From an uncultured Gammaproteobacteria bacterium (lineage in GTDB: Bacteria > Patescibacteriota > Patescibacteriia > UBA1558 > 2-01-FULL-52-15): a stretch of 60,660 nucleotides of DNA. The stretch is taken from contig CAYTUI010000002.1 of the NCBI GenBank assembly GCA_964441335.1, positions 1 through 60,660 of the forward strand, written 5' to 3'. Positions 3,828-49,136 of this stretch are shown here, piece after piece. How positions within the stretch are numbered: the stretch's first letter is position 1; each line of letters opens with the position of its first letter. A program made the translations under genes and the position numbers. Below the pieces are notes generated by a model. That model was not told the DNA's origin, made no database searches, and worked only from the letters and a program-made list of their open reading frames with translations.

Positions 3828-6602
3828 ATGTTAGTTGTATTGGTCGCGTTTATTCTACTAGGAAGTTTATTTTTAGGAGCTGTTGTTTATTTTAGGAACA
3901 AAAGAAATAAACTAAACATCTATTTTGGTGTGATGGCAGTCGCTAATGCATGCTGGGCATTTGTAAATTTAATGTCCGCCTTTGATCAGAATGCAATTTG
4001 GGTCAGGCTTCAATATACGCTAGGCGCAATTCTTTTAGGAGCTGGCCTGGTGTGGTTTTTTTATTTAATTGAAAGAAAGTCAAATATTTTTCGAAGCATT
4101 ATAATATACCTTACTTCATTTTTTTTCGCTGTCACTAGTTTATATGGTGAATTGATAATTAAACGCGTTGATAAAATTAATTTTGGAAGTTTTGAGGGAG
4201 AATTTGGTTCGTTGTTCTTTTTTTACACCGCTTTTATTGGATTGACGCTAATTTTTATTGTTATCAGATTATTTGTTGAGACATTTAGATCAACTGGCAA
4301 TAGGAAATTGCAGCTCTTATATGTATCCTTCGGATCTATGGTTTTTGCTGCATTAGCGATTGTTCCAAGTTTTTTGTTGCCCCTTATTGGGTTTAATAGT
4401 TTTAGTCAGTTCGATCTTATTGGTTCTTTTATATATATATCGTTTATTACCTATTCGATAGTACGATATAGACTTATGAACATAAAGATGGTGATTGCCA
4501 GAAGCGTTTTATATTTTCTACTAGTCGCTACAGTAACAAGCTTTTTTACATTTGTTATTTTCTTAATTCGAGAAATTTTTGAAGTAAAAACTCGCATTTC
4601 AGAATGGGCACTGATTATGTTAGCGTCGTTTATAGTGGTAGTTGCTTTGGACCCGCTGAAAAAACTCCTTTCACGAGTCACTGACGATTTTTTTTACAAA
4701 AATAGAGTTAATTACGACCAACTCTTAAGAAATTTAAGTACTATTATCGCCCGAGAAATTGATATGGAGGTTCTGCTTCAACGCATAAAGGACACTTTAC
4801 AGAAAGACCTGAAAGTTAAAAATGTGGATATTGTGATCCACACTGATGGTTACAAAAAAATTAATAATCAGAAGTTTGAAGACTACGCTATAAATGACGA
4901 AATTATCAATTTGATCAAGAGCGCTGATGATATTATAGTCTTGGAAGAATACCGCAGAAAAGTTGAAGATATGTCGGCTTCAGTTTTAAGGGATAATGTG
5001 ACCAAAGCCATAGAGACTATGGATTCTTTAAATTGGCAATTGATTATCCCGGTGATAGTTGAATCCAAACTGACCGCTGTAATTATTTTGGATTATAAAC
5101 TATCCGGCGATGTATATAGTAAAGAAGATATCAGCTTCTTCAATGTTTTTTCTCCACAAATTGCTATCGCCATTGAAAAGTCCCGACTTTATGAGGAAGT
5201 GGAAAATTTCAATCTAGAGTTGAAAGAGAAAATAGACAGGGCAACCAAGAAATTAAAGACTGCTAATGTGGATTTGGGGGAGAGGAATAAGTTTTTAACT
5301 ATTACGCAAAATATCAGTAATTTGATTAGTCGTAATTTGGATATTAATAATGTTATTCAGATTATAGTTGATAGTATATCTACGGAATTGGGGTATATAG
5401 GTGGTATCTTAAGTTTCAAAGACGAGAGTAATAAATATCTTTATCCGGCGGCGATTACCCGGGGAGAAGCGGCTAAGAAGGGTTTGGCTTTATTGCCACG
5501 GCCGGTCAGCGAGTATAAGGCTAATATTGGTAATAAGGAAAATTTTGGAGTGCGCTGTTTCACTACCGGTAGCGCTATTACCAGCGATTCCTTTGCCGAC
5601 TTTTTCGCGCCGCCAATAGAAAAGGAAGCCGCGGATAAAATTCAACAAGCACTTAATATAGTAACAGTCGTGGGCATTCCTATCTACTCGGAAAATAAAA
5701 TTATTGGCGTCATTCATTACTTGTTAGCTATTAAAGAGGGAAGTATTAGTCGTTTGGATTATGAAATGATGAATAATTTGGCTGACCAAGTGGGTATCGT
5801 TTATAGAAACGTTAAACTGTATCAGCAGTTGGAGAATACTAATAAGAAATTACAGGAGGCTAATATCCATTTAAAACGATTGGATCAGGCCAAGTCCGAG
5901 TTTTTATCCATTGCTTCCCATCAATTGCGCACTCCAACTTCAGCCATCAAAGGCTATCTATCTATGTTATTGGAAGGGGATTATGGTCCGGTAAAACCTG
6001 AACAAAGGAAAGTGGTGGCTGTTGTTTATGAAAGCGCCGCGCGGTTAGCCAGATTGATTAATATCTTTTTGAATGTTTCCAGGATTGAAGCCGGCCGTTT
6101 TAAATTAAATAAAGCACCGACTGATATGAATGAAATTATTAAAGGTGTAGTAACTGAATTGCAACAGCAGGCCAAGACTAAAGATTTGGAATTAAAAGTC
6201 AATTTGCCGACTAAGGCGCCGATACTTAATGTGGACAGCGATAAGATCCGCGAAGTTGTTCTTAATCTGGTTGATAATTCCATCAAGTACACAGCAAAAG
6301 GTTTTGTGGAAATTAACAGCCGCGTCAAAGGGGATCGGTATGAATTTTGGACCAGAGATTCGGGTATGGGTATTAGGACCGATGAAGTAAATACGCTTTT
6401 CAAAAAGTTTGTCCGCGGGACAGGAGTGGCGCAGGTTAATACTGGTGGCTCCGGTTTAGGATTATATATTGCCCAAAGAGTAATTAAAGAACATGGCGGC
6501 CATATTTGGGCGGAGAGCGACGGCTTAGACAAAGGCAGTATTTTTAAATTTACTTTAGCTATGGATAAATCCCCGGATATTACGAGTGGGCATTTGAAGT
6601 AG
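3828..6602 (+). CDS. multi-pass membrane sensor histidine kinase with GAF-like regions
   Basis: About 8-9 N-terminal hydrophobic helices; H-box SHQLRTPTSAIKGY; G1 DSGMGI; G2 GGSGLGLYIA; no response regulator adjacent. Confidence 0.9.
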   Translation: MLVVLVAFILLGSLFLGAVVYFRNKRNKLNIYFGVMAVANACWAFVNLMSAFDQNAIWVRLQYTLGAILLGAGLVWFFYLIERKSNIFRSIIIYLTSFFFAVTSLYGELIIKRVDKINFGSFEGEFGSLFFFYTAFIGLTLIFIVIRLFVETFRSTGNRKLQLLYVSFGSMVFAALAIVPSFLLPLIGFNSFSQFDLIGSFIYISFITYSIVRYRLMNIKMVIARSVLYFLLVATVTSFFTFVIFLIREIFEVKTRISEWALIMLASFIVVVALDPLKKLLSRVTDDFFYKNRVNYDQLLRNLSTIIAREIDMEVLLQRIKDTLQKDLKVKNVDIVIHTDGYKKINNQKFEDYAINDEIINLIKSADDIIVLEEYRRKVEDMSASVLRDNVTKAIETMDSLNWQLIIPVIVESKLTAVIILDYKLSGDVYSKEDISFFNVFSPQIAIAIEKSRLYEEVENFNLELKEKIDRATKKLKTANVDLGERNKFLTITQNISNLISRNLDINNVIQIIVDSISTELGYIGGILSFKDESNKYLYPAAITRGEAAKKGLALLPRPVSEYKANIGNKENFGVRCFTTGSAITSDSFADFFAPPIEKEAADKIQQALNIVTVVGIPIYSENKIIGVIHYLLAIKEGSISRLDYEMMNNLADQVGIVYRNVKLYQQLENTNKKLQEANIHLKRLDQAKSEFLSIASHQLRTPTSAIKGYLSMLLEGDYGPVKPEQRKVVAVVYESAARLARLINIFLNVSRIEAGRFKLNKAPTDMNEIIKGVVTELQQQAKTKDLELKVNLPTKAPILNVDSDKIREVVLNLVDNSIKYTAKGFVEINSRVKGDRYEFWTRDSGMGIRTDEVNTLFKKFVRGTGVAQVNTGGSGLGLYIAQRVIKEHGGHIWAESDGLDKGSIFKFTLAMDKSPDITSGHLK

Positions 6603-6824
6603 CGTTTAATATAAGATTTAGCTTTTTATTACCGTGTAGCCTGACTACTCGGTTTTTAGTTTGTAGCCAATAGCAAGTCGTTACCAGTTAATACCAATTA
6701 GTAATTCCCTCATTACTTATTCTTCATTCCTTCGCCCAGCCCTCGGCCATGAGCTCGGGCCGAATGGAGGGCGATCAGGTCGGATGACCTGACATTCCTC
6801 ACTCCTCAATCCTCAACTAACTAA

Positions 6825-6852
6825 TTGACAAACCCTTTATATTTGCTAAAAT
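6825..6852 (+). promoter_or_regulatory. sigma70-like promoter (TTGACA, 16-nt spacer, TAAAAT)
   Basis: TTGACA at 6825-6830 and TAAAAT at 6847-6852, read directly from the sequence. Confidence 0.5.
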
Positions 6853-6865
6853 TGAGTCATTAGAT

Positions 6866-6959
6866 AGCCGTCCATTGACAATAAGCCGTCGCTAAACATG
6901 AGAGAAATTTGGTAGCCGTCGCATTAGCCTGTATATAACCGGAATACGACAGCCGTCGC
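6866..6959 (+). repeat. four same-orientation copies of AGCCGTC(C/G)C
   Basis: Copies at 6866-6873 (AGCCGTCC), 6884-6892, 6914-6922 and 6951-6959. Confidence 0.8.
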
Positions 6960-7158
6960 CAAATATAGCAGACAGGAAATAGGTGTATAAATGCTTTCAA
7001 GCCCTGCCCTTAGTATAAATATTGAGGATAGGCCTGGAAAAGCGGGTTTAGTTCATTACAATATGGGATATTGTCGGAGCTAAAGCTGTTTTATTTTCAT
7101 TGAGGTTAGGATCAACCCCTTGACCAAGGCGTTGAACAATTTAGATCAAACAATATCT

Positions 7159-7184
7159 ACAACCATTAAAGATGGTTGTTTTTG
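7159..7184 (+). terminator. intrinsic terminator / attenuator
   Basis: ACAACCAT-taaag-ATGGTTGT 8-bp stem followed by TTTTG, 32 nt before the ATG at 7216. Confidence 0.65.
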
Positions 7185-7215
7185 TTAAGAGAATGTTTTG
7201 TTTGAGTAATTAAAT

Positions 7216-7683
7216 ATGCACAAATTCCTACTAAAAATTGAATCGCCGATTGAAGATCAGCTTAGAGCGGCAATTGAAGCAGACTCTGTCCTTAATGTTT
7301 ACACGCCTTTTGAAAGTAAGCGTGCGTCTGAGAGCCATGAAGACTTTATAGCCAGAGTCAGAAGTGATGCCTCCAGATATCAGTTTGTAAGCGTTAAGTA
7401 CGACGACTCGTTCTACTATGTGGCCTTTGATTTCTCCGGTCCTCTCATAACTGCGTACGGAAAATTTCAGGTTATTCCTGCACAAGTTGTTGGTGGCACA
7501 TGGGGCGTTCATTACTGCATTTTTTACCCTGGATTAAGCAATGCGTTGGAGCAACAGGAAATTTTTGCGCGGATAGACTCCGGTTGCTTGTCGGGTATGA
7601 TTATGGGAGATATAACATGTGATTGTAAGAATCAACTTGAAGAGTCAATAAAAAAATTGCGCATCAAAAAAGCGGTGTCGTGA
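7216..7683 (+). CDS. GTP cyclohydrolase II family protein, N-terminal part (gene interrupted by a -1 frameshift)
   Basis: RIDSGCLSGMIMGDITCDCKNQL resembles the RibA zinc motif (C-x10-C-x-C); the ORF stops just after A7 and A6 runs. Confidence 0.7.
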   Translation: MHKFLLKIESPIEDQLRAAIEADSVLNVYTPFESKRASESHEDFIARVRSDASRYQFVSVKYDDSFYYVAFDFSGPLITAYGKFQVIPAQVVGGTWGVHYCIFYPGLSNALEQQEIFARIDSGCLSGMIMGDITCDCKNQLEESIKKLRIKKAVS

Positions 7684-8135
7684 TTGAAATACCTGGTCAG
7701 GATGGTAGAGGGTGGCATCAGTACAAGATGGCCAATCAGTATTTAATGAACGAGTTGGAAATGAATACAGTTGAGGCCGCTCGAGCCTTTTATAAGAAGG
7801 AGGAATATATTGATCGTAGATCCTACCATGAATGTGCTATCATTTTGCGCGCCCTAGGATTTAACGAGAACCACAGCTTTTCACTTGGTACGAATAACCC
7901 ATCCAAGACCAAAGCATTCCAGAGGTTTGGGTTTAATTTAAAGAGGGTAGAAACGGTAGTGGCCAAGGAATTGAGTGTTTATGCTATTAAAAACCTTAAC
8001 GCAAAACAGAAGGAGTGGAATCATGAAAAAAGACCTGAGACTGAAGGGACCGGTCGCGATAGAAGGATTGTCGGGGACCGGGAAAGGAACGGTCGCGAAG
8101 TTACTCGCGCAGCAGTTGGGGATTATGTACTTTGA
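7680..8135 (+). CDS. GTP cyclohydrolase II family protein, C-terminal part (frame -1 relative to 7216-7683)
   Basis: IEIPGQDGRGW, NTVEAA and TNNPSK segments resemble the RibA C-half; the last ~110 nt overlap cmk and look like read-through tail. Confidence 0.65.
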   Translation: MIEIPGQDGRGWHQYKMANQYLMNELEMNTVEAARAFYKKEEYIDRRSYHECAIILRALGFNENHSFSLGTNNPSKTKAFQRFGFNLKRVETVVAKELSVYAIKNLNAKQKEWNHEKRPETEGTGRDRRIVGDRERNGREVTRAAVGDYVL

Positions 8136-8706
8136 CATCGGCCTGGTATTTCGCGGGGCTACCTATCTTTACCAGCAGGGAATAATAAATAATCTTGCGG
8201 ATGTCTATGCAAAGATTTTGAAGCAGGATTTGGTGAAGTATGTTTGGGATGGTGGGCAATGTTTTTTTGAGGCAGATGGTCAGGATTTAACTGAACGCAT
8301 ACGGACAGAAGAGGTCGCGACTCAAACAAGCAGCATGCTCGTTAGTGGCGCCCGCATGAAAATGATGGGCTTGATAGCCAGAGCATTGGTTAGACAAGTG
8401 CAGGTGTATGTGTGCGACGGGCGCGCTGTGTCGCAGTTTCTGTGTCCTGACGCATCTCATGTGTTTTATCTGACAGCGGATGAACATGTGCGGGTGGATC
8501 GCCGATATCAGGAGCTGTTGGCACGTGGTCAATCTGTCAGTCGGGCTGACGTAGCTAGTCTTATCCGGGCGCGTGATAAGGCAGATATGGAACGGGAAGT
8601 ATATCCCCAGATTATTTTCCCAACCTATCACCTGATTGACACGACGTATTTGACACCGCAGTCTGTGCGTCAGAGACTTATGGGCATTATCAAGGAGACA
8701 ATATGA
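8023..8706 (+). CDS. cmk: cytidylate kinase-like
   Basis: P-loop IEGLSGTGKGTVAKLLA, RTEEV, CDGRA, LTADEHVRVDRR and ARDKADMER match type-1 CMP kinase; the ATG at 8023 is preceded by AGGAGTGG. Confidence 0.8.
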   Translation: MKKDLRLKGPVAIEGLSGTGKGTVAKLLAQQLGIMYFDIGLVFRGATYLYQQGIINNLADVYAKILKQDLVKYVWDGGQCFFEADGQDLTERIRTEEVATQTSSMLVSGARMKMMGLIARALVRQVQVYVCDGRAVSQFLCPDASHVFYLTADEHVRVDRRYQELLARGQSVSRADVASLIRARDKADMEREVYPQIIFPTYHLIDTTYLTPQSVRQRLMGIIKETI

Positions 8707-9077
8707 AACGAGCAGAAAAACCGAGAAAAATCCAAATTCGGCGAGATCAGCACTTTAAAAAGAGAGGTGGTTTTGCCAAAGTTTACCGCATCATTTGCGG
8801 AGATTGTGGCCAGCCAGTGCTGATTTATCAGAAAGACGGTGTTGGCCACTTGTTTCGCTGTTACCTCAACAGGATCCACTGGCCGGATGTCGTGGCCAAT
8901 TTGTCTCAAGACAGGTGTCTGGGTGTTGAAACGCTACCACCTTTGGTCTGCCTAAATTGCGAAAATGTCATTGGTATACCAATGCGTCACCATGACGGAC
9001 GTCTGGCGTTTAAGCTACGACAAGGCTACTTCCGTAAGGTTCTTTACAAGGAGGAAACTCTACCAAGCCAGCCATAG
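8703..9077 (+). CDS. hypothetical zinc-ribbon protein
   Basis: Two CxxC pairs (CGDCG, CLNCE); ATGA start/stop overlap with cmk; no family recognised. Confidence 0.6.
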   Translation: MKRAEKPRKIQIRRDQHFKKRGGFAKVYRIICGDCGQPVLIYQKDGVGHLFRCYLNRIHWPDVVANLSQDRCLGVETLPPLVCLNCENVIGIPMRHHDGRLAFKLRQGYFRKVLYKEETLPSQP

Positions 9078-11267: not shown

Positions 11268-11747
11268 TTGTCAATTGTTAAAAAAAATTGGTCAAAGATT
11301 GAAAAAAAATATTTTAAAGCTTTGGTAGAAGTAACCAATAAACCAATTTATACCGACAAATTTAATTGTTCACTGACGACATTTGGTATGTGTCCATATG
11401 ACGTCAAGAAAAGTTGGTTTATGGTCAGCACCAGATATGATTTTTCTTATCAGCTGACGGTTATCGCCCATGAAATTATGCACCTACAGTTTATACGTCA
11501 GTATTATCAAGATTGCCGAAAAAAGGGTTTGTCCAGAAGTCAGTTTGAAGATTTGAAAGAAGCCTTAACTGTGTTGCTTAATACCAAACCATTTTCTGCA
11601 TTTTTGATAGCTGAAGATAAGGGATATGTTAGGCATCAACAATTGAGGCGATATATATTGAAGGTTTGGAGTAAGGATCAAGATTTTGAAAATTTGCTTA
11701 ATCAATCAATAAAATTTATATTAAAGAATAATCAATCAAACATATGA
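11268..11747 (+). CDS. hypothetical HExxH-motif protein
   Basis: HEIMH is the only recognisable motif; TTG start; the same frame is open back to ATG 11043 except for one TAG; stop overlaps the RHS start (ATGA). Confidence 0.55.
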   Translation: MSIVKKNWSKIEKKYFKALVEVTNKPIYTDKFNCSLTTFGMCPYDVKKSWFMVSTRYDFSYQLTVIAHEIMHLQFIRQYYQDCRKKGLSRSQFEDLKEALTVLLNTKPFSAFLIAEDKGYVRHQQLRRYILKVWSKDQDFENLLNQSIKFILKNNQSNI

Positions 11748-14700
11748 AAAAGCGAGATTTATACAGGGGGATATATACATTGGTAGTGACGGCTATGGTG
11801 ATTATGCCACTAACCCCGGTTTTGGCAGCTCCACGACCAATTGCTGTAATTTCTGATAATCCGGTGAGTCAAGTTGCGCAACCGGAAGTTGTGGCACCGG
11901 AAGTTGAGGCTGTGCCTGCCGAAATTAGCACGGAACCTGCTCAACCAGCTGATGACGCGGCTTTGATTGATATGGGGTTGCAGGCCGAGGAAACACCGCC
12001 TTTGGAACAGACCAGTGGTGGTGGAGACAGTCCGCTGGATCCTTATGCTAACCGCGATAACGCCGGCGCCAAGCCAACTAAACTATTGGGAGAGCATAAT
12101 GTTGATGAATTCAGCGGCGCCTTTGCTTACTCTTATCCTGTTAGTTTACCGGCCGGCAGAGCAGGATTGCAACCACAAGTAAGTTTGAATTATAACCATC
12201 AGCGACAAAATGTTGGCTCCATGGTCGGCTTTGGCTGGGAGTTATCAATGTCTAGCATAGAAAGAGACGGCAGAACAGGATTGGACAAACTATATACTGA
12301 TAATAATTTCCGACTGAATTTAAACGGCAACCACGAGCTGGTGGCCATTGATGTTGATAGTAATGGGTACGGGTTATATGGGAAGAGAATTGAGAGTGAT
12401 TTTCTGAAGATAGAATATAGTTCGGTAAATAAGTGGCTGGTGACTGATAAAACAGGTATGGTTTATACTTTTGGCTCTCAAGCCACCAGTCGTCAGGACA
12501 ATCCCAGTGATTCCACCAAGGTTTATAGATGGATGCTAGAGGAAATTAGGGATACTAATGACAATTTTGTCCGTTACGAATATTTTAAGGATTTCGGCCA
12601 GATTTATCCCAAGAAGATTTTTTATACCGGCAGTGGCACCACTGATGGAACCTTTGAAGTTTGGTTTGAACCGTTCGCTTCAGGTTCCCAGACTGAAAAT
12701 AACTTAGTGTCAATATCTGAGACCGCCGGGTTTACAGTTCAGACAAAATATTTATTGGACAAAATTGATGTTTATGCTGATGGAGTAAAAAGCCGGTCTG
12801 ATGACTTGAACTTTGGTCTGAACGACTCCGGTAAAAAATATTTATTGAACTCAATCACACCAAAAGCTTATAAAGATGCTCAAGAATATTCTAAAGACAC
12901 AGTGAATTTTGATTATAGCTATGAGGTGGCGTCATTTACACCCTCTGGTGATTATCAATTACCCAGCGGCTATGAGCTGTATTTGCAACCGGGCCTTGGG
13001 TCTTCCAGACGAGCTATGTTTATTGATTTGAATCTTGACGGTTATGCTGATTATATTAATATGACCTGTAATTCATCGGCTGTGACTGTTAATGTTTTCA
13101 ACAATAATACGACTGGTGGATGGAATGATGTTAGTAATTACGACACCAGCTTTGTTTTTTCCGGTTGTAGTCATTCAACTACCATTCCGGCGACTTTTGC
13201 CGAAATGAATGGCGACCACTATATAGATTTAGTTACTAATTCCGGTTATTACCCCAATACTGGTTCTGGCTGGGGAAGTTTAGTCGCGGGTTCTCTACCA
13301 GCATCTTTATTGCAGTCTACAACGAGCAACAAACCGATAAACTCATTAATTTTTACTGATTTAAATAGGGATGGTTATGATGACGCTTATTATAATCATT
13401 CAACCTCTTCGTTGGATTCGGCCGTAACAGCTTATATAAAGAATAAGACAACAGGTGTTTGGACGCAAGATAATGATTATAACATCAGTCTACAATTAGA
13501 TTATGCCGATTGTTTTAGATATGGAGGTACGCCATTTGGTTTTGCAGATGTAAATAATGATGGGTCAGAGGACGTATTCTATGATTATTATTGTCACCCC
13601 GAACAACATACAACATATTCCGGTGAAGTCGTCTATCTAAATAATGGCACCTCCCTTGCTTTATCTGCTGATTATGCTGCGCCAGCCAATATGAGTTGGT
13701 ATAGTATTTCGGCATATAATGGTCAAAATATTTCTTTCTTAAGTGATTTTAATAGAGACGGTCTACAAGATAAAGGAGGTTATAGCAGGGATCAATGGGT
13801 TGACGGAACAGGTCCTCATTCTTCCGGCGGTATGAGTCTATTGGGTGTGTCAGTTTTTGATACTGTAACTTTTGATGGATATAGCTATTTCACTAACGCT
13901 GTTCCAGTCGCGGTTGTTGATCTTAATGGTGATCAGGCTCAAGATGCTATTCATTCATATTCCGGTGACGGAGATCGTATATACTACGGTCAAGGAATTA
14001 AGAACGATATACTAACTAATATTGATGGTCAAAGCGGCGCGTCAGTTAGAGTTGCCTATGGCAATTCCTCTCAAGAAAAAGATTCTACCGGTAGTTTGTT
14101 GAATCCCAATTTGCCTTTTGACACGCAGATTGTCAAGGAAGTTGTAGTGAATGATGGGCAAGAAAATTTGACCGGTCAAAGTTATACATATTCCGACGGT
14201 TCTGTGGCTAGCTATACTAATGAAAATATAAAAGACGTTTATGGCTTTGGAAAGGTGACTAAAAAAATAGGCCAGGCTCTGGTGGATGTTGATTTGGGAG
14301 ATGGATCAGACGGTTCGTTTAATTCCAATATGGACTACATTTTTACCGCAGACAAAGATTTTACATATTTTACAGTAAATTCTGGACATAAAGTTACCAT
14401 ACAACCTGGGGTTAAGGTTAAAGTACAAGGGACAGCTACAATTAATGGCAGTTTATTTGCCAAAGGAACGGGATATCCCGAGCAAGCGGGTCCTGGAGCC
14501 GGTGCTGATGGGCAAATGTCAACTTATGGACCGTCTGGCGGCGGTGGTGGAGCCGGATTTGTTTTTAATGGCGAAAGTTCCGGAGGGTACGAGGGTCAGT
14601 ATATAGTTTCCGGAGGCGTGGCTTATGGTAATAGCGAGTTGGAGCCAGCACTGCGAGGCTCTGGGGGCGGCAAAGGTGGTTATAAGCAAGGTGAGGCTAT

Positions 14701-17700
14701 AGCTCGAGGCGGTTCCGGTGGAGGAATAATAATTTTGAATACTAAAAATTTAACAGTTAACGGAGAGATTAACGCTGACGGTAACGGGGGAGAGAGTTGG
14801 ACATCAACTGGTTACCAAAATAGTGGTGGCGCTGGCGGTGGTTCTGGCGGTTCTATCTATATCAGAGTGGCAGAGACAGCCAATATTGGAACTAATATGG
14901 TTCACGCGCGCGGTGGCGCCGGTGGTCTTGGCGCTTATGGTAATGACGGCGGAGACGGTTCTATCGGACGAATCCGGATTGAAGCGCCAACTATCGTCGG
15001 ATCCACAGATCCTGCCTATTTTTCACTTGGTTCTGTCGGTTATACTGTTGACGGGAACCCCGCGGATTCACAGTTAAGAGTAATTGAATCTGATTATCAG
15101 ACCGCTATAAATTCAGGTACTGCTTTGGATGATTCCTACTTCTTTCACGGCTTAAAATCCCGGGACAGAGAGTTTGATGTTGATGGCAATCAGCTGACTC
15201 AAAATAATTATAGCTACCAGTTAAATAATGTGGGTCAAAGTAGAAAATCTGCTTTATTAGATCTAAAGGCGAGCACAATTATTGACGAAGGTCAAAATTA
15301 TAGCAACGGCCAGCAATTTGATTATGATTTAAATAATGGCAATGTGCTCAATCAGGAAGACTTGGGTCATGTGCAAGTTAATATTAGTTCAGGACAAATA
15401 ACTGATCCTCTACTCGGTGACGAAAAAACCACAACTTATTCTTACGCCCTAAACGCCGATAAACATATTCTCGGCGCGCCTAAGACTAAAGTTGTTTCAG
15501 GTTTGTCGGAAACCAAAGATCAGGACTATTACTATGATCAGCTACCGCTCGGGCAAGTGAATAAAGTTAATCTGACGAAAGAGGATACTAAAGTGAACGG
15601 TGTTGATGTGGAAACTACCTATAATAGTTTGGGTTTGCCGGTAACCAAGAAAGATCCCAAGGAAAATACAGTGGTTACTTTAGCTTATGATAGCGCGAAT
15701 CTTTATCCGCAGACTTCCACCGATGTTAACGGCAGAATTACTACTACTGAATATGACCCAGTGACCGGACAATTACTGCATTCTACAGATCCTAACGGTT
15801 ATCAGGAAGCAAATGGCTATGACGCTTTTGGTCGGCCAATTTTGAAACAAGTTTCTGACCCAAATAATCCGGCTAATTTAATTACTGTTCAGGAAATCAG
15901 TTATGAAGATGTGGCTTTCCCCAACTATAAGGAAGTTAAGGATTATTTTAACTCAAGTCAGTATGTTACCAGCCGTGAATACTATGACGGGCTGGGTAGA
16001 GTTATCCAAAGCAAAAAGTCAGATGCCAGCGGACAGTATGTGACTGTGGCAATGGAATACGACAGTCAGGGTAGAGTTAAAAAACAATCTTTGCCGTATT
16101 TCAGCGGTTCAATCGCTTATTCGGCTCCGGTTTTCACTTATTCAAAGCAGTATACTTATGACGTTTTAGATCGGGTACTGACAGAAATTACACCAGTCGG
16201 CACAACTACTTATTCGTATGACGGTTTTACCACCACCATTACCGATCCGCGCGGCAAGGTTAAGGAATTGACCAAAGACGCCTATGACAATCTGGTTCAG
16301 GTTAAAGAGCATGAAGGAGCCGCAATTTATACGACTAATTATGAATATACCTTGACTAATAAACTGAAGAAAATTACTGACGCTCAAGGCAATGTTAGAA
16401 ATTTTGTTTATGACGATTTGGATAATCTAGCATCGCAGGACATGGTGCATAAAACATCAGTGGCCGACCCTGTTGACTGGGTTTATACCTATGATAACAA
16501 TGGCAACGTTTTAACCAAAACTGATCCCCGCAGTCAGGCGACTGATTATAGTTATGACAGTTTGAACAGAATTTTAACTGAAGACTTTAGCGGCACCAGC
16601 GGAGTGGAATATGATTATAATTACGATGAAGGATTGGGTCAGCTTAACAGATTAAGCAGTGTTATTGGCAATAACGACAGCGCTACTTATTATACTTATG
16701 ATTATGCCGGCAGGCCGACTCTGGTTCATCGGGTAATTGACGGTTTAAACTTTGATTTACAGTTCGCCTATAATATCAGGGGAGATGTCAGTTCAATTAC
16801 TTACTCTGAAAGACAGCGAGTGATTTATTCTTTCAATAACGGCGGACAAGTTAATCAGGTTGATTTAATTGATGACGGGGTGACTACAACTTTGGCAACC
16901 AATATTCAGTATTCGTTGACCGGCTTGATCAGTCATTTGGAACGGGGCAATGGTGTTACCACTGATTATACCTATGACCCGGCTCAAGGTTATCGCTTAA
17001 CTCATTTGGTGAGTCAGTTGGGAAGCGCAAAATTACAGGATATTAGTTATACTTATGATTCCAACGGCAATATTTTAACGCTGACTGATAATTCTAATAC
17101 TGATTTGGCTAAGACCGTGACCTACAATTACGACGACTTGAATCGTTTGGTTTCAGCTACTGTAACTAATGCCACAAGCGGTAATAATTATTCCCATACT
17201 TACAGCTACGACGCTATCGGTAATATGTTATCTAATAGCGCGGTTGGGCAATATACCTATAACAAAGACAATCCGCATCAGGCCGGACAAATTGGGGCAG
17301 ATTATTATACCTATGACGCCAACGGCAATGTTCGTTATATCAATAATGACCTTCATGAATGGGATTGGCGCGACAGAATGACCAAATCGCGTTTAGGCAA
17401 TAACGATTCTACTTATTATGTCTATGACCATAATAATCAGCGGTTGAAGAAATGGACGGATGTCACACCTCCGCCACCACCTCCGCCGCCTGTTCCTTGT
17501 CGCGGTAACTGCCCGAAACCTATTTTTGAGGGTTCTGTGGACGTCGGCTTTGAAGCTACTACAACCGAGGAGATCATAGAGGGGGAATTGGAGATGGGAG
17601 ATGGGGAAGAGGGAAGTGAGGATTCGGGAACTGGGGCTGGTGAAGCGGAAATTGGTAAGCAACCGGTTGAGGAAGTTCAACTATTGGATGGTTCGGCTGA

Positions 17701-18841
17701 CTTGAGTCAGGCCGGAATAGTTAGGATGGCATCTGTTCCGGAGGTTGATGATATTGCTGACTATTATATAGATAAATACTACGAATCGCGGTATAATGGA
17801 TCTGCCAGAAACCACTATTTCTTAGGCAATATCCGTCTAGCTTCAGAAAAGCTGTCTGGCGATAACGCCGGAATATACTACATTTTGTCTGATCACCTAG
17901 GCTCCAGTTCTCTGACAACTAACGCCACCGGTACAGTGATAGCTCTGACAGACTATTATCCTTACGGATCAGAAAGCTATAATAATACTACGACCGATAT
18001 TGGAGACGATTACACCTTTACCGGTAAAGAGTTAGACGAAGAATCTAATCTCCAGTACTTTGGTGCAAGGTATTATGATCAAGAGAGCGGGAGATGGATA
18101 AGCATTGATCCTTATGGATTAGACTTAGATCGTCTCATGGAAATTATATCAAGTCCTCAGCAGTTCAATGGCTATTTATATAGTATGGGAAATCCTGTAA
18201 TTCTAGTTGACCCCGATGGTAATAGATCAGATGAACCATGGGATGTATGGAATTGGGCTCCAGGGTTTAAGCAGTTTGCCGATGCTTTTGACAGACATCC
18301 GAATGAAACAACCAACATCTCGTCAAGCTTAGTACCAGGATATGGAGATGTACAAGATGCTAAAGAAGCCTTCACTGGTAAGGAAACTTTCACTGGTAGG
18401 GATCTTAGTACCGGAGAGAGGGTTATATCGGGAGCCGCCGCTTTTATACCTATAGTTAGTGGATCTGTGATAAGGTCAGGGGTTAAAGCTGTAAAAGGTG
18501 CGATTAAATTATCTGATGAGGTCTTTAGTTTATCGCCCCAGGTCACTAGGGGAGTTCAGAGGTATTGGGCGAAATCTAATTATGATGATACTTTGAGCAG
18601 TTTCGGGGATCATTTTGCAAGACACGGTGCCGGTAGAACCCCGGAACAGTATTTAGATGATGGGGTAGATTTTTACAAGGATTACAAAGACTTTGGTAAG
18701 AGTCACCATATTTATTCCACAAATGAATATGGTATAAAAATCAGTAATAAAGACCTGAACTACTACGGCATTTATACTACATATGGAAGGGCGGTTACTC
18801 ATGGACCGATTGATGAGAGTAAATCATTTCTTAATTACTAA
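11744..18841 (+). CDS. RHS/YD-repeat polymorphic toxin with SpvB-like and FG-GAP/VCBS-like N-terminal regions
   Basis: N-terminal signal/TM. SpvB-like FSGAFAYSYPVSLPAGRAGLQPQVSLNYN...GFGWELS. Five DxNxDGxxD repeats. Many YD repeats (YDAFGRP, YYDGLGRV, YDSQGRV, YDALGN-type). RHS core end YFGARYYDQESGRWISIDPYGL ... NPVILVDPDGN, followed by a variable C-terminus. Confidence 0.93.
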   Translation: MKKRDLYRGIYTLVVTAMVIMPLTPVLAAPRPIAVISDNPVSQVAQPEVVAPEVEAVPAEISTEPAQPADDAALIDMGLQAEETPPLEQTSGGGDSPLDPYANRDNAGAKPTKLLGEHNVDEFSGAFAYSYPVSLPAGRAGLQPQVSLNYNHQRQNVGSMVGFGWELSMSSIERDGRTGLDKLYTDNNFRLNLNGNHELVAIDVDSNGYGLYGKRIESDFLKIEYSSVNKWLVTDKTGMVYTFGSQATSRQDNPSDSTKVYRWMLEEIRDTNDNFVRYEYFKDFGQIYPKKIFYTGSGTTDGTFEVWFEPFASGSQTENNLVSISETAGFTVQTKYLLDKIDVYADGVKSRSDDLNFGLNDSGKKYLLNSITPKAYKDAQEYSKDTVNFDYSYEVASFTPSGDYQLPSGYELYLQPGLGSSRRAMFIDLNLDGYADYINMTCNSSAVTVNVFNNNTTGGWNDVSNYDTSFVFSGCSHSTTIPATFAEMNGDHYIDLVTNSGYYPNTGSGWGSLVAGSLPASLLQSTTSNKPINSLIFTDLNRDGYDDAYYNHSTSSLDSAVTAYIKNKTTGVWTQDNDYNISLQLDYADCFRYGGTPFGFADVNNDGSEDVFYDYYCHPEQHTTYSGEVVYLNNGTSLALSADYAAPANMSWYSISAYNGQNISFLSDFNRDGLQDKGGYSRDQWVDGTGPHSSGGMSLLGVSVFDTVTFDGYSYFTNAVPVAVVDLNGDQAQDAIHSYSGDGDRIYYGQGIKNDILTNIDGQSGASVRVAYGNSSQEKDSTGSLLNPNLPFDTQIVKEVVVNDGQENLTGQSYTYSDGSVASYTNENIKDVYGFGKVTKKIGQALVDVDLGDGSDGSFNSNMDYIFTADKDFTYFTVNSGHKVTIQPGVKVKVQGTATINGSLFAKGTGYPEQAGPGAGADGQMSTYGPSGGGGGAGFVFNGESSGGYEGQYIVSGGVAYGNSELEPALRGSGGGKGGYKQGEAIARGGSGGGIIILNTKNLTVNGEINADGNGGESWTSTGYQNSGGAGGGSGGSIYIRVAETANIGTNMVHARGGAGGLGAYGNDGGDGSIGRIRIEAPTIVGSTDPAYFSLGSVGYTVDGNPADSQLRVIESDYQTAINSGTALDDSYFFHGLKSRDREFDVDGNQLTQNNYSYQLNNVGQSRKSALLDLKASTIIDEGQNYSNGQQFDYDLNNGNVLNQEDLGHVQVNISSGQITDPLLGDEKTTTYSYALNADKHILGAPKTKVVSGLSETKDQDYYYDQLPLGQVNKVNLTKEDTKVNGVDVETTYNSLGLPVTKKDPKENTVVTLAYDSANLYPQTSTDVNGRITTTEYDPVTGQLLHSTDPNGYQEANGYDAFGRPILKQVSDPNNPANLITVQEISYEDVAFPNYKEVKDYFNSSQYVTSREYYDGLGRVIQSKKSDASGQYVTVAMEYDSQGRVKKQSLPYFSGSIAYSAPVFTYSKQYTYDVLDRVLTEITPVGTTTYSYDGFTTTITDPRGKVKELTKDAYDNLVQVKEHEGAAIYTTNYEYTLTNKLKKITDAQGNVRNFVYDDLDNLASQDMVHKTSVADPVDWVYTYDNNGNVLTKTDPRSQATDYSYDSLNRILTEDFSGTSGVEYDYNYDEGLGQLNRLSSVIGNNDSATYYTYDYAGRPTLVHRVIDGLNFDLQFAYNIRGDVSSITYSERQRVIYSFNNGGQVNQVDLIDDGVTTTLATNIQYSLTGLISHLERGNGVTTDYTYDPAQGYRLTHLVSQLGSAKLQDISYTYDSNGNILTLTDNSNTDLAKTVTYNYDDLNRLVSATVTNATSGNNYSHTYSYDAIGNMLSNSAVGQYTYNKDNPHQAGQIGADYYTYDANGNVRYINNDLHEWDWRDRMTKSRLGNNDSTYYVYDHNNQRLKKWTDVTPPPPPPPPVPCRGNCPKPIFEGSVDVGFEATTTEEIIEGELEMGDGEEGSEDSGTGAGEAEIGKQPVEEVQLLDGSADLSQAGIVRMASVPEVDDIADYYIDKYYESRYNGSARNHYFLGNIRLASEKLSGDNAGIYYILSDHLGSSSLTTNATGTVIALTDYYPYGSESYNNTTTDIGDDYTFTGKELDEESNLQYFGARYYDQESGRWISIDPYGLDLDRLMEIISSPQQFNGYLYSMGNPVILVDPDGNRSDEPWDVWNWAPGFKQFADAFDRHPNETTNISSSLVPGYGDVQDAKEAFTGKETFTGRDLSTGERVISGAAAFIPIVSGSVIRSGVKAVKGAIKLSDEVFSLSPQVTRGVQRYWAKSNYDDTLSSFGDHFARHGAGRTPEQYLDDGVDFYKDYKDFGKSHHIYSTNEYGIKISNKDLNYYGIYTTYGRAVTHGPIDESKSFLNY

Positions 18842-20234: not shown

Positions 20235-21287
20235 ATGATGATAAAAAGGATGTTTCCGATTCTGCTAATGGCAGTTTTCGGATTTTTATTTGTGTCGTCT
20301 GTTCAGGCAGAGGAGACGACTTATCCGGCGGGGTCGTTACTTGCTTTGAATAAAACAGGATCAGCAGTTTATTACATTGGTGAGGATGCAAGGAAATATA
20401 TTTTTCCCGAGGAGAAGACCTACTTTACTTGGTATGATGATTTTTCTAAAGTAATTAAAGTAGACCCAATTGAGCTGGATAAATATGAAGATGGCGGAAT
20501 TATGCCCTATAGGCCGGGTGTTTTGCTTATAACCCATCCCAATACCAACAATGTATATGCGGTAGAACCGAATGGTTTGTTGAGAAAAATTGTTTCAGAG
20601 GAAGCCGCCAAGAATTTATATGGTGAAAATTGGGCGTCAACTGTTCGGGATGTTATACCCGGGTATTTTGCATCAACGTATAAAATGGGGTCTGACCTGT
20701 CAGATAAGTTGCCCAATGGCACTTTGGTAAAAGAACAAGGCAAAGATGATATATATTATGTTTATGACGGCAGTAGAAGAAAGTTTTATGACGCTACGGC
20801 TTTTGATGAGAACGGATTTAGGCAAAAAGATATTATGACTGTGGCTAGCTTAGCCAAGTATGAATACGGGAGAACCATAAAAGGTAAGGAAGAAAATTTG
20901 TCCCACTTCACGAAAGACAAGGCATTCAAATATTCAAATATGGAATTGTATTACACGATTAATAGTGACTTTGGCGGAAGTATCGCGATTGTATTTCCTA
21001 CCTCAACAAAACCTTTTGAAGTAAGAAATGTTCTCATCAAAGGAGCCGGAAATTTGAGGCTTGATTATAAAAGTAATCAATATGCTTTAAAGGAAGGAGA
21101 AACCTCCTATTTCACCTTATATTATCAGGCACCGTTCGTGGTAGACATGAGCGAGTCATACATGAAAGTTGTTAGCAATAATTTTAGATCGGAGACGCCT
21201 ATTGAAATAGATCTTAGAGATTGGGTTTTGTGGGATATAGCTGAAGATAAACAAATAATCAATATACACGGTCAGACTTTTAAATAA
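20235..21287 (+). CDS. secreted/surface protein sharing its N-terminal module with the 1240-aa surface protein
   Basis: Signal peptide; about 190 aa (AVYYIGEDARKYIFP...TYFTWY...YRPG...VYAVEPNG...VIPGYF) parallel the N-terminus of the 56784-60506 product. Confidence 0.7.
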   Translation: MMIKRMFPILLMAVFGFLFVSSVQAEETTYPAGSLLALNKTGSAVYYIGEDARKYIFPEEKTYFTWYDDFSKVIKVDPIELDKYEDGGIMPYRPGVLLITHPNTNNVYAVEPNGLLRKIVSEEAAKNLYGENWASTVRDVIPGYFASTYKMGSDLSDKLPNGTLVKEQGKDDIYYVYDGSRRKFYDATAFDENGFRQKDIMTVASLAKYEYGRTIKGKEENLSHFTKDKAFKYSNMELYYTINSDFGGSIAIVFPTSTKPFEVRNVLIKGAGNLRLDYKSNQYALKEGETSYFTLYYQAPFVVDMSESYMKVVSNNFRSETPIEIDLRDWVLWDIAEDKQIINIHGQTFK

Positions 21288-23290: not shown

Positions 23291-23310
23291 CATATTGGCG
23301 ACCATGTTGG

Positions 23311-23655
23311 TCAGGGCTCGTGGGATCTGTCAATCAGATCGTTGAAGCTGTAAACACCGGTGTGGTCGTGGCTGACCTGTTTGTTCTCCAGTGATTTGTG
23401 CAACAGGTCGTTGTCAGCGGTCAGATGTCTGATCTGGTCTTCTTGTCGGTGGCTTCTTCTAACCGTCAGCTGGTCGAAGACAATCAGGAAGATGGCTAGA
23501 CCGATAAAGAACAGGCGGACTAGGATCCTGGCTGTCGTTGTTGATGTCACCCCGGTCAAATCCTGTGTCAGAGTCAGAGAGTTATCCGGCAAGTCCCAGG
23601 CCTGACCGGCGATCACCAGCAGAGCCATCACAACCATGTAGAGAACCATGCGCAT
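23311..23655 (-). CDS. hypothetical two-TM membrane protein (114 aa), GC-rich orphan
   Basis: Two hydrophobic helices then a charged tail; AGAAGGAGG SD; own consensus promoter. Confidence 0.6.
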   Translation of the reverse strand: MRMVLYMVVMALLVIAGQAWDLPDNSLTLTQDLTGVTSTTTARILVRLFFIGLAIFLIVFDQLTVRRSHRQEDQIRHLTADNDLLHKSLENKQVSHDHTGVYSFNDLIDRSHEP

Positions 23656-49061: not shown

Positions 49062-49136
49062 TGGTGACCCCACCGGGAATCGAACCCGGATTGCCAGGAT
49101 GAGAACCTGGTGTCCTAACCGTTAGACGATGGGGCC
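49062..49136 (-). tRNA. tRNA-Glu (anticodon CUC), CCA encoded
   Basis: The reverse complement folds as a cloverleaf: acceptor GGCCCCA/TGGGGTC, anticodon stem CCAGG/CCTGG with loop TTCTCAT, T-arm CCGGG-TTCGATT-CCCGG, 3' ACCA. Confidence 0.9.

Follow-up and report, generated by a model that had tools for sequence, protein, structure and literature searches.

MetJ and NikR are DNA-binding regulators in which a small ribbon-helix-helix (RHH) module is joined to a ligand-binding or oligomerizing domain and reads short repeated operator words near promoters. Response regulators of the OmpR/PhoB and LytTR (AgrA/ComE) types also recognize direct repeats, and nucleotide operons may be preceded by riboswitch or attenuator leaders that carry a hairpin and a U-tract shortly before the first gene. 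To our knowledge, almost nothing is known about gene regulation in the tiny uncultured Patescibacteria. The subject of this report is an array of AGCCGTC heptamers at positions 6866–6973 of a 60,660-nt patescibacterial contig (CAYTUI010000002.1, assembly GCA_964441335.1; the whole stretch is called the window), which probably serves as a set of DNA-level operators upstream of a nucleotide operon.

The window is contig C2 of genome G000 (1.27 Mb, 82 contigs, 42% G+C, completeness 100), which originates from groundwater metagenomes. Its family is designated f1, and L-numbers denote motif loci. The original prediction, made from the letters of the window, described a leader or non-coding RNA at 6860–7184 that ends in a terminator, and it offered three functions: an attenuator or riboswitch-like leader, a protein-titrating RNA, or DNA-level binding sites. 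The third of these is favored by heptamer pairs that lie past promoters in both orientations across the order.

The Heptamer Array and Its Conservation

The AGCCGTC repeats are real and do not arise by chance. The exact 9-mer AGCCGTCGC occurs on the forward strand at 6884, 6914, and 6951, while a fourth heptamer copy at 6866 reads AGCCGTCCA, which keeps AGCCGTC and does not fit the predicted AGCCGTC(C/G)C. The other three copies and all of the predicted start spacings (18, 30, and 37 nt) hold. By chance, 0.35 matches to the 9-mer are expected per 60.7-kb window, and none of 100 shuffles reached four. Genome-wide, there are eight copies in 1.27 Mb, three of which fall inside these 68 nt.

The array consists of two operator pairs on the forward strand, here called O1 and O2. 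O1 (6866–6890) contains AGCCGTC at 6866–6872, an 11-nt spacer, and AGCCGTC at 6884–6890, and it starts 13 nt past the −10 hexamer of the promoter. O2 (6951–6973) lies 85 nt past O1 and contains AGCCGTC at 6951–6957 and the degenerate AGCAGAC at 6967–6973, 16 nt apart from start to start. Pairing of this degenerate fifth copy with the 6951 copy is conserved. Between the pairs is an extra single AGCCGTC at 6914–6920 that is found in the window’s genome only and is absent there from the other seven f1 leaders. A sigma-70-type promoter is predicted upstream of the repeats: TTGACA begins at 6825 and is followed by a 16-nt spacer and TAAAAT ending at 6852 (6825–6852, forward strand; 11/12 matches), with TG preceding the −10 hexamer.

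Conservation within f1 resides in words at fixed distances. Heptamers occur at 0, +18/19, +85–88, and +101–104 in all eight f1 leaders, and the linkers between them keep their lengths while their sequences are unrelated. When the whole gap between the flanking genes was searched against 60 relatives, three f1 genomes matched 6839–6896, which comprises the −10 region and the first pair, and the remaining matches fell within a repeat element at 6724–6815. In the f1 relatives with a scan match (L020, L022, L023, L050, and L051), a promoter of the same type lies 12–13 nt before the first heptamer.

Two further boxes accompany the pairs on the forward strand. TTAGCC at 6924–6929 has the counterpart GTTAGCCAAAA in relatives (f1 leader alignment), and GTGTATAA at 6983–6990 appears there as GTTGATAA or GTGGATAA, with an ATG following immediately. 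The latter, called the GTKGATAA box, is located at +117 to +121 in 7/8 f1 leaders, and the eighth locus stops short of that position. A similar box lies 3′ of an O2-like module at C15:30412 in G000. The GTKGATAA box resembles what we take to be a DnaA box. As regards iterons or a replication origin, a kinase gene and a metabolic operon flank the element, which is also found in front of many ordinary genes.

The sequence downstream of the module differs among relatives, where unrelated open reading frames (ORFs) begin a few to ~40 nt past the GTKGATAA box; these are QueC-like, AdoMetDC-like (judged from sequence), or small. Given these early starts, the window’s 30-codon ORF, its terminator, and the 200 nt at the 3′ end are regarded as local features. 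The 30-codon ORF (6991–7083, forward strand) lies directly 3′ of the conserved module, and its DNA has no match in any of the 60 relatives searched. It is the largest forward-strand ORF of the region, in which the original prediction had likewise noted no ORF of 60 aa or more, and a 46-aa TTG frame lies on the reverse strand at 6860–7000.

The terminator-like hairpin occupies 7159–7187 on the forward strand, with a stem at 7159–7179 (nine pairs, three of them G-C), a loop of 3, and the tail TTTTTGTT, and it ends ~30 nt 5′ of the ATG at 7216. It has the hairpin and U-tract of an intrinsic terminator, though its stem is weak. Neither a conserved terminator nor an alternative antiterminator was found in the 60 relatives or the related loci. 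The predicted terminator is therefore present in the window and is not conserved, whereas the repeats, whose loss in relatives would likewise have counted against the original prediction, are conserved. The leader measures ~355 nt from promoter to ATG, and sequence comparison points to 6991–7215 (~200 nt) as a 5′ leader that is not conserved and carries a weak terminator.

No conserved RNA fold accompanies the words. At the gathering threshold, the sole Rfam match in the window is a tRNA at 49065–49136, and at E up to 10 there are three weak matches (14–17 bits), all outside 6860–7184. Rfam searches of seven related loci returned nothing except a tRNA. The original prediction had likewise recognized no known riboswitch in the region. 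The RNAalifold consensus of seven f1 leaders contains four pairs with 0 compensatory changes at −2.1 kcal/mol, which is short of what a structured RNA shows. The single-sequence fold z-scores of −1.9 (forward strand) and −3.1 (reverse strand) are unremarkable, and the folds are not conserved.

A separate observation in f1 concerns L013:1536–1610 and the matching portion of L017, where ~70 nt that are conserved and rich in hairpins lie upstream of a YbaK-like gene. Rfam gives no match for this stretch at E up to 0.1, and no counterpart is seen before the YbaK-like gene of the window (9134).

The Heptamer Pair across the Order and Class

The heptamer pair is widespread in the order. It was searched as AGCCGTC-N8-16-AGCCGTC in 86 genomes, with the reversed pattern as a control, and is present in 45 of them; the control gives single matches in nine genomes (hand tally). 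Spacers among the 66 unique pairs are confined to N9–12, with N11 in 44, N9 in 12, N10 in 7, and N12 in 3. A promoter scan, tallied by hand over the 66 unique pairs and counting near-consensus sigma-70-type sites with at least 9/12 matches, finds a promoter-like site upstream of 60 pairs. The word is over-represented and keeps a fixed spacing and promoter position, as expected of an operator array.

Both senses of the pair are used. The GACGGCT sense accounts for 42/66 pairs, with the first heptamer mostly 6–7 or 15–16 nt past the −10 hexamer, or 31–34 nt past it when a third copy intervenes. The AGCCGTC sense accounts for 18/66 pairs, mostly 8–20 nt past the −10 hexamer, and 6/66 pairs are unassigned. 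Genes for PF16927 seven-transmembrane (7TM) proteins lie behind AGCCGTC-sense pairs at L061, L076, and L077 and behind GACGGCT-sense pairs at L026, L034, and L047. The presence of the same heptamer pair just past promoters in either sense, homologous 7TM genes included, argues for recognition of double-stranded DNA. A compact example is found in G000 at C15:23310–23334, where TTGACA-17-TATCTT is followed by 7 nt, GACGGCT-N11-GACGGCT, and the ATG from which a 7TM protein of 466 aa is read.

Genes downstream of the pairs in the order encode 7TM sensors (the dominant class), RHS-type toxins, radical-SAM proteins, small cysteine-rich ORFs, and asparaginase-like proteins, and the pair also fronts the operon that holds the candidate regulator gene. 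Sampling at the class level finds the pair in 43 of 401 genomes, including all six sampled genomes of another family, f21.

Several motif loci have features of their own. In genus g19 of family f7, the loci L071, L073, L074, L075, and L069 consist of a promoter, a heptamer pair, ~70 nt, and a terminator hairpin, with no obvious ORF; at L069, the scan found no promoter. These short units are possible regulated small RNAs. C19:10262–10400 of G000 (L084) and the f7 loci L071–L075 share a word group near the motif sites that comprises AAACCAAAA, a hairpin, and TTGGCGAAAAGCGAT. In G000, this group sits upstream of an SSB-like gene, and the pair at C19:10262 has no clear promoter.

The C15 cluster of G000 (C15:19000–33054, L083) adjoins a cysteinyl-tRNA synthetase gene and is syntenic with G016:C2. 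It encodes three RHS/YD-type proteins with small downstream ORFs, the 466-aa 7TM protein, and three 7TM-only proteins, and it also carries an asparaginase-like gene and the gene of a predicted nucleoside-deoxyribosyltransferase-RHH (NDT-RHH) fusion. Its motif sites are at 21146, 23310–23334, and 30344/30412.

A Candidate Binding Protein

The candidate binder is the 188-aa NDT-RHH protein encoded at C15:29586–30152 of G000. It is 188–191 aa long in the C15 and syntenic G016 clusters, where its gene follows the asparaginase-like gene, and it has no Pfam match above threshold. Its N-terminal 130 residues are modeled by AlphaFold2 with a DNPH1/nucleoside-deoxyribosyltransferase-like fold at a predicted local distance difference test (pLDDT) score of 80. 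The top Foldseek matches in the PDB are DNPH1 (E 2e-6, TM score ~0.7 on target), and a PDB sequence profile weakly agrees (E 0.06). The residue that follows the invariant Tyr69 is Leu in the family consensus and Gln in the aligned DNPH1 chain, at a position that we take to be the catalytic Glu of wild-type DNPH1. If that assignment holds, Leu at this position suggests, with low confidence, that the domain may bind nucleotide instead of cleaving it. The ESM Atlas clusters are candidate-phyla entries named “hypothetical protein,” with one named nucleoside 2-deoxyribosyltransferase and PF05014 in 17% of members, and they serve as a lead only.

The C-terminal 50 residues have a strand-helix-helix pattern, and 28 orthologues all keep K141, T143, and R145. 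Sub-threshold matches to RHH-type Pfam families occur among these 28 members (HicB in eight, NikA-like in one, and RHH_3 in one). A two-copy model of the tail scores 0.75, against 0.00 for the best of three controls; in calibration, the homodimer mark was reached by 20/30 proteins solved as same-chain pairs and by 1/23 solved as single chains. The dimer runs reach a contact agreement of at least 94% and a partner pLDDT of at least 88. Their contacts 7-7, 5-8, and 4-9 describe an antiparallel ribbon centered on T143, a prediction that may mirror solved RHH dimers. The models show two helices after an unstructured strand.

The protein and the heptamer pair tend to occur together. The 188-aa protein is found in 74/86 genomes of the order and in 59/64 of those of high quality, and it is single-copy in 73/74; the one other genome has a second, weaker match. 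Exact pairs are present in 44/74 genomes with the protein versus 1/12 without it, and in the lone protein-less genome the match is promoter-less and has a coding-type context. Of the 44 genomes with both, 33 have gene and pair on a single contig, 0.2–13.4 kb apart, and the other 11 have them on different contigs (hand tally). Outside the order, the protein is present in 5/5 genomes picked by hand for pairs with AT-rich spacers, in four of them on the motif contig, and in 0/5 hand-picked, 100%-complete genomes without pairs from five other families; these samples are small, and related genomes are not independent.

Two loci place the pair directly before the operon of the regulator. In G033, it lies 12 nt before the asparaginase-like gene, with the regulator gene next. 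In G015, an ORF of 304 aa without a Pfam match takes the same position, with the pair 8 nt before it and the regulator gene again next. This arrangement suggests that the candidate regulator gene may be autoregulated.

The zinc-ribbon protein encoded at 8703–9077 of the window was named in the original prediction as a possible binder and is rejected here. It belongs to no Pfam family, is found in 5/14 genomes of the family, and in the four relatives among these lies on contigs other than the motif contigs.

Operator Model and Alternative Explanations

We put the probability of the full model, in which the AGCCGTC words are DNA operators, act in repression, and are bound by the 188-aa protein, at about 0.5. 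Its most secure part is the DNA-level operator function as such, which sequence comparison makes probable whichever protein is the binder. Structural modeling and linkage leave the chances evenly divided as to whether the 188-aa protein binds the heptamers.

In the model, a sequence-specific protein on the heptamers would block initiation or early elongation from the 6825–6852 promoter. Occupancy of O1 (6866/6884) and O2 (6951/6967) from about +6 would control transcription into the downstream nucleotide operon. Repression is suggested by the position of the sites at ~+1 to +35 of activator-independent promoters. The binder would be the 188-aa protein, with the DNPH1-like domain as a probable nucleotide sensor and the predicted RHH tail as the part that reads DNA, each RHH dimer reading one heptamer. 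The fixed O1–O2 distance of 85–88 bp (~eight helical turns) suggests that one oligomer may bridge the two pairs. Observed are the motif, its geometry and conservation, its use in either orientation, and its co-occurrence and linkage with the protein; binding, repression, a ligand, and a loop are what the model adds.

A broader interpretation is tentative. The protein could be a nucleotide-sensing DNPH1-RHH repressor of candidate-phyla-radiation bacteria that loops O1 and O2 over 85–88 bp and coordinates a competition and sensing regulon with nucleotide-modifying genes. RHS-type toxins, 7TM receptors, radical-SAM proteins, and small-peptide genes might then make up this regulon. The regulon is conserved and apparently undescribed, and the listings and abstracts searched contain no description of the AGCCGTC motif or of an NDT-RHH fusion regulator.

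A number of observations weigh against the model. Just 44 of the 74 protein-bearing genomes have exact pairs, and the linkage could mark the gene as a member of the regulated cluster instead of its regulator. The single heptamer shows no enrichment in non-coding DNA of G000, where 22/155 copies fall in the ~17% that is non-coding. Sense is skewed by family (42 GACGGCT versus 18 AGCCGTC). The AGCCGTC-sense loci in f1 and f7 come with a long leader or form a short terminated unit, in contrast to the short 5′ untranslated regions (UTRs) of GACGGCT-sense loci, and this asymmetry is not what recognition at the DNA level alone would predict. Nor does the model explain the TTAGCC and GTKGATAA boxes.

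The RHH assignment has its own difficulties. It draws on sub-cut-off Pfam matches, secondary structure, and a predicted dimer; the best HicB match (E 0.0012) reaches 17 bits against a cut-off of 21, below the curated standard for an RHH family. The PDB sequence profile of the tail returns chance matches to antibody light chains only, and the monomer model of the tail is poor (pLDDT 65). Tandem RHH sites such as those of MetJ and Arc are closer together than 16–19 bp from start to start, and the wider period here would need an oligomer that spans almost two helical turns.

The operator function could instead belong to a different protein, for example an unrecognized DNA-binding partner of stand-alone receivers that are phosphorylated by the adjacent 7TM-GAF kinase (3828–6602). 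This agrees with the order of kinase gene, terminator/promoter, and pair at f1 and f4 loci, with the dominance of 7TM-sensor genes behind the pairs, and with the direct repeats that are typical of response-regulator operators, but we consider it unlikely. OmpR-type (PF00486), LytTR (PF04397), and GerE (PF00196) domains have 0 matches in G000, whose completeness is 100, and all eight receiver-domain matches there lie in short frames of 127–151 aa. Judged from its gene content, two-component signaling in G000 seems to operate without classical DNA-binding response regulators. The heptamer period of 16–19 bp also departs from the 10–11 or 21 bp that we take to be usual for response-regulator families, and no other binder candidate was identified, the zinc-ribbon protein being unlinked.

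Explanations at the RNA level fare worse. A trans-acting or sponge RNA, in which four or five AGCCGUC words left unpaired would base-pair with GACGGCU 5′ UTRs (e.g., that of the 7TM gene at C15:23310–23334) or titrate an RNA-binding protein, is improbable. Both senses do occur in G000, the C15 pair shares the N11 spacer and abuts the AUG, the window transcript would end at the terminator, and the f7 units of promoter, pair, ~70 nt, and terminator have the form of short RNAs. The original prediction that no complementary word lies nearby needs amendment, as GCGACGGCT is present on the forward strand at 6517–6525 inside the upstream kinase gene; it lies ~340 nt 5′ of the first repeat, ahead of the predicted start, and the transcript would therefore not contain it. 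Yet the best leader–UTR duplex (−31.6 kcal/mol) is equaled or bettered by 46/300 random genomic windows, homologous 7TM genes carry either sense, and most pair-bearing f4 genomes have pairs of one sense only. A protein sponge needs the same sense as its targets, while the target-like 5′ UTR of G000 has the complementary GACGGCU and in this departs from CsrB/RsmZ-like sponges, for which no CsrA search was made. Least probable of all, by a wide distance from even odds, is a leader that acts in cis as a riboswitch or attenuator and would use a nucleotide-related ligand to govern the terminator at 7159–7187. The long leader (~355 nt), the hairpin shortly before the ATG, the nucleotide-related genes downstream, and the forward-strand z-score are all compatible with it. 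Against it, Rfam gives nothing in the region even at E up to 10, and neither a common structure nor covariation is seen among the seven related leaders. In relatives, the terminator and the 3′ 200 nt are unconserved and ORFs start a few to ~40 nt past O2; the hairpin has just three G-C pairs, and the conserved words occur in both orientations elsewhere. The attenuator or riboswitch-like leader of the original prediction is accordingly abandoned in favor of probable DNA operators.

Genomic Context

The gap that contains the array is 613 nt long and separates a histidine kinase gene from the start of a GTP cyclohydrolase II-like gene (7216). The histidine kinase (3828–6602, 924 aa) contains 7TM, GAF, HisKA, and HATPase domains. 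Downstream, the operon encodes the GTP cyclohydrolase II-like protein, cytidylate kinase, the zinc-ribbon protein (8703–9077), and the YbaK-like protein (9134).

The GTP cyclohydrolase II-like gene (7216–8135, forward strand) is split into two ORFs, 7216–7683 and 7680–8135, that overlap at GTGA. PF00925 is divided between them, with profile positions 28–73 in the first ORF (155 aa) and 85–160 in the second (151 aa). Homopolymer A-runs lie just upstream of the split, and the second ORF overlaps the annotated start frame of the cytidylate kinase gene. The split could represent a natural split gene, a frameshift, or a pseudogene. The runs listed as matching comprise six DNA metagenome runs from three studies, four of them possibly the source sample, and no RNA run. 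The stretch 6772–8200, terminator and split gene included, is identical in contigs from three of these possible source runs, all of one study.

Between the kinase gene and the promoter is the short G+C-rich repeat element at 6724–6815, which has eight further partial copies in G000 and copies in seven relatives. Contigs of four runs break or branch there, and its summed depth is ~5–15x that of the flanks. The element looks like a repetitive extragenic palindrome (REP) or a miniature inverted-repeat transposable element (MITE). A few kb downstream, an ORF of 2365 aa occupies 11744–18841.

Comparison with Known Systems

The analysis yields a conserved operator word with defined geometry, a set of target promoters, and, as candidate regulator, a single-copy protein with a domain that plausibly senses nucleotides. 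It provides an entry point into the regulation of toxin and sensor gene clusters in Patescibacteria, and on sequence grounds it would reclassify a riboswitch-like candidate as a protein operator array.

The locus resembles the riboswitch and attenuator leaders of nucleotide operons in its long 5′ leader with a hairpin and U-tract shortly before the first gene. It differs from them in that it matches no family, has no conserved fold, and ends in an unconserved terminator.

Operators of the OmpR/PhoB or LytTR type (AgrA/ComE) share with it the direct repeats beside sensor-kinase genes and a regulon in which sensors, secreted toxins, and genes of the peptide or radical-SAM kind are common. In contrast to those operators, the sites here lie downstream of the −10 hexamer and not upstream of the −35 hexamer, with a period of 16–19 bp, and searches of G000 gave none of the cognate output domains.

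MetJ, with its met boxes, and NikR are compared last. The candidate has no sequence-level membership in their families (Pfam matches fall below cut-offs and the PDB profile of the tail is empty), its sensor domain is DNPH1/nucleoside-deoxyribosyltransferase-like and not S-adenosylmethionine- or Ni-binding, and its words are 16–19 bp apart and not abutting, in two pairs 85–88 bp apart. The 8-mer AGCCGTCT is one position off what we take to be the met box, AGACGTCT, and the K-x-T-x-R strand of the candidate resembles what are presumably the K/T contacts of MetJ. Like MetJ and NikR, the system would combine a small, here predicted, RHH module joined to a ligand-binding or oligomerizing domain with short repeated operator words near the promoter and a regulator gene that is probably autoregulated.

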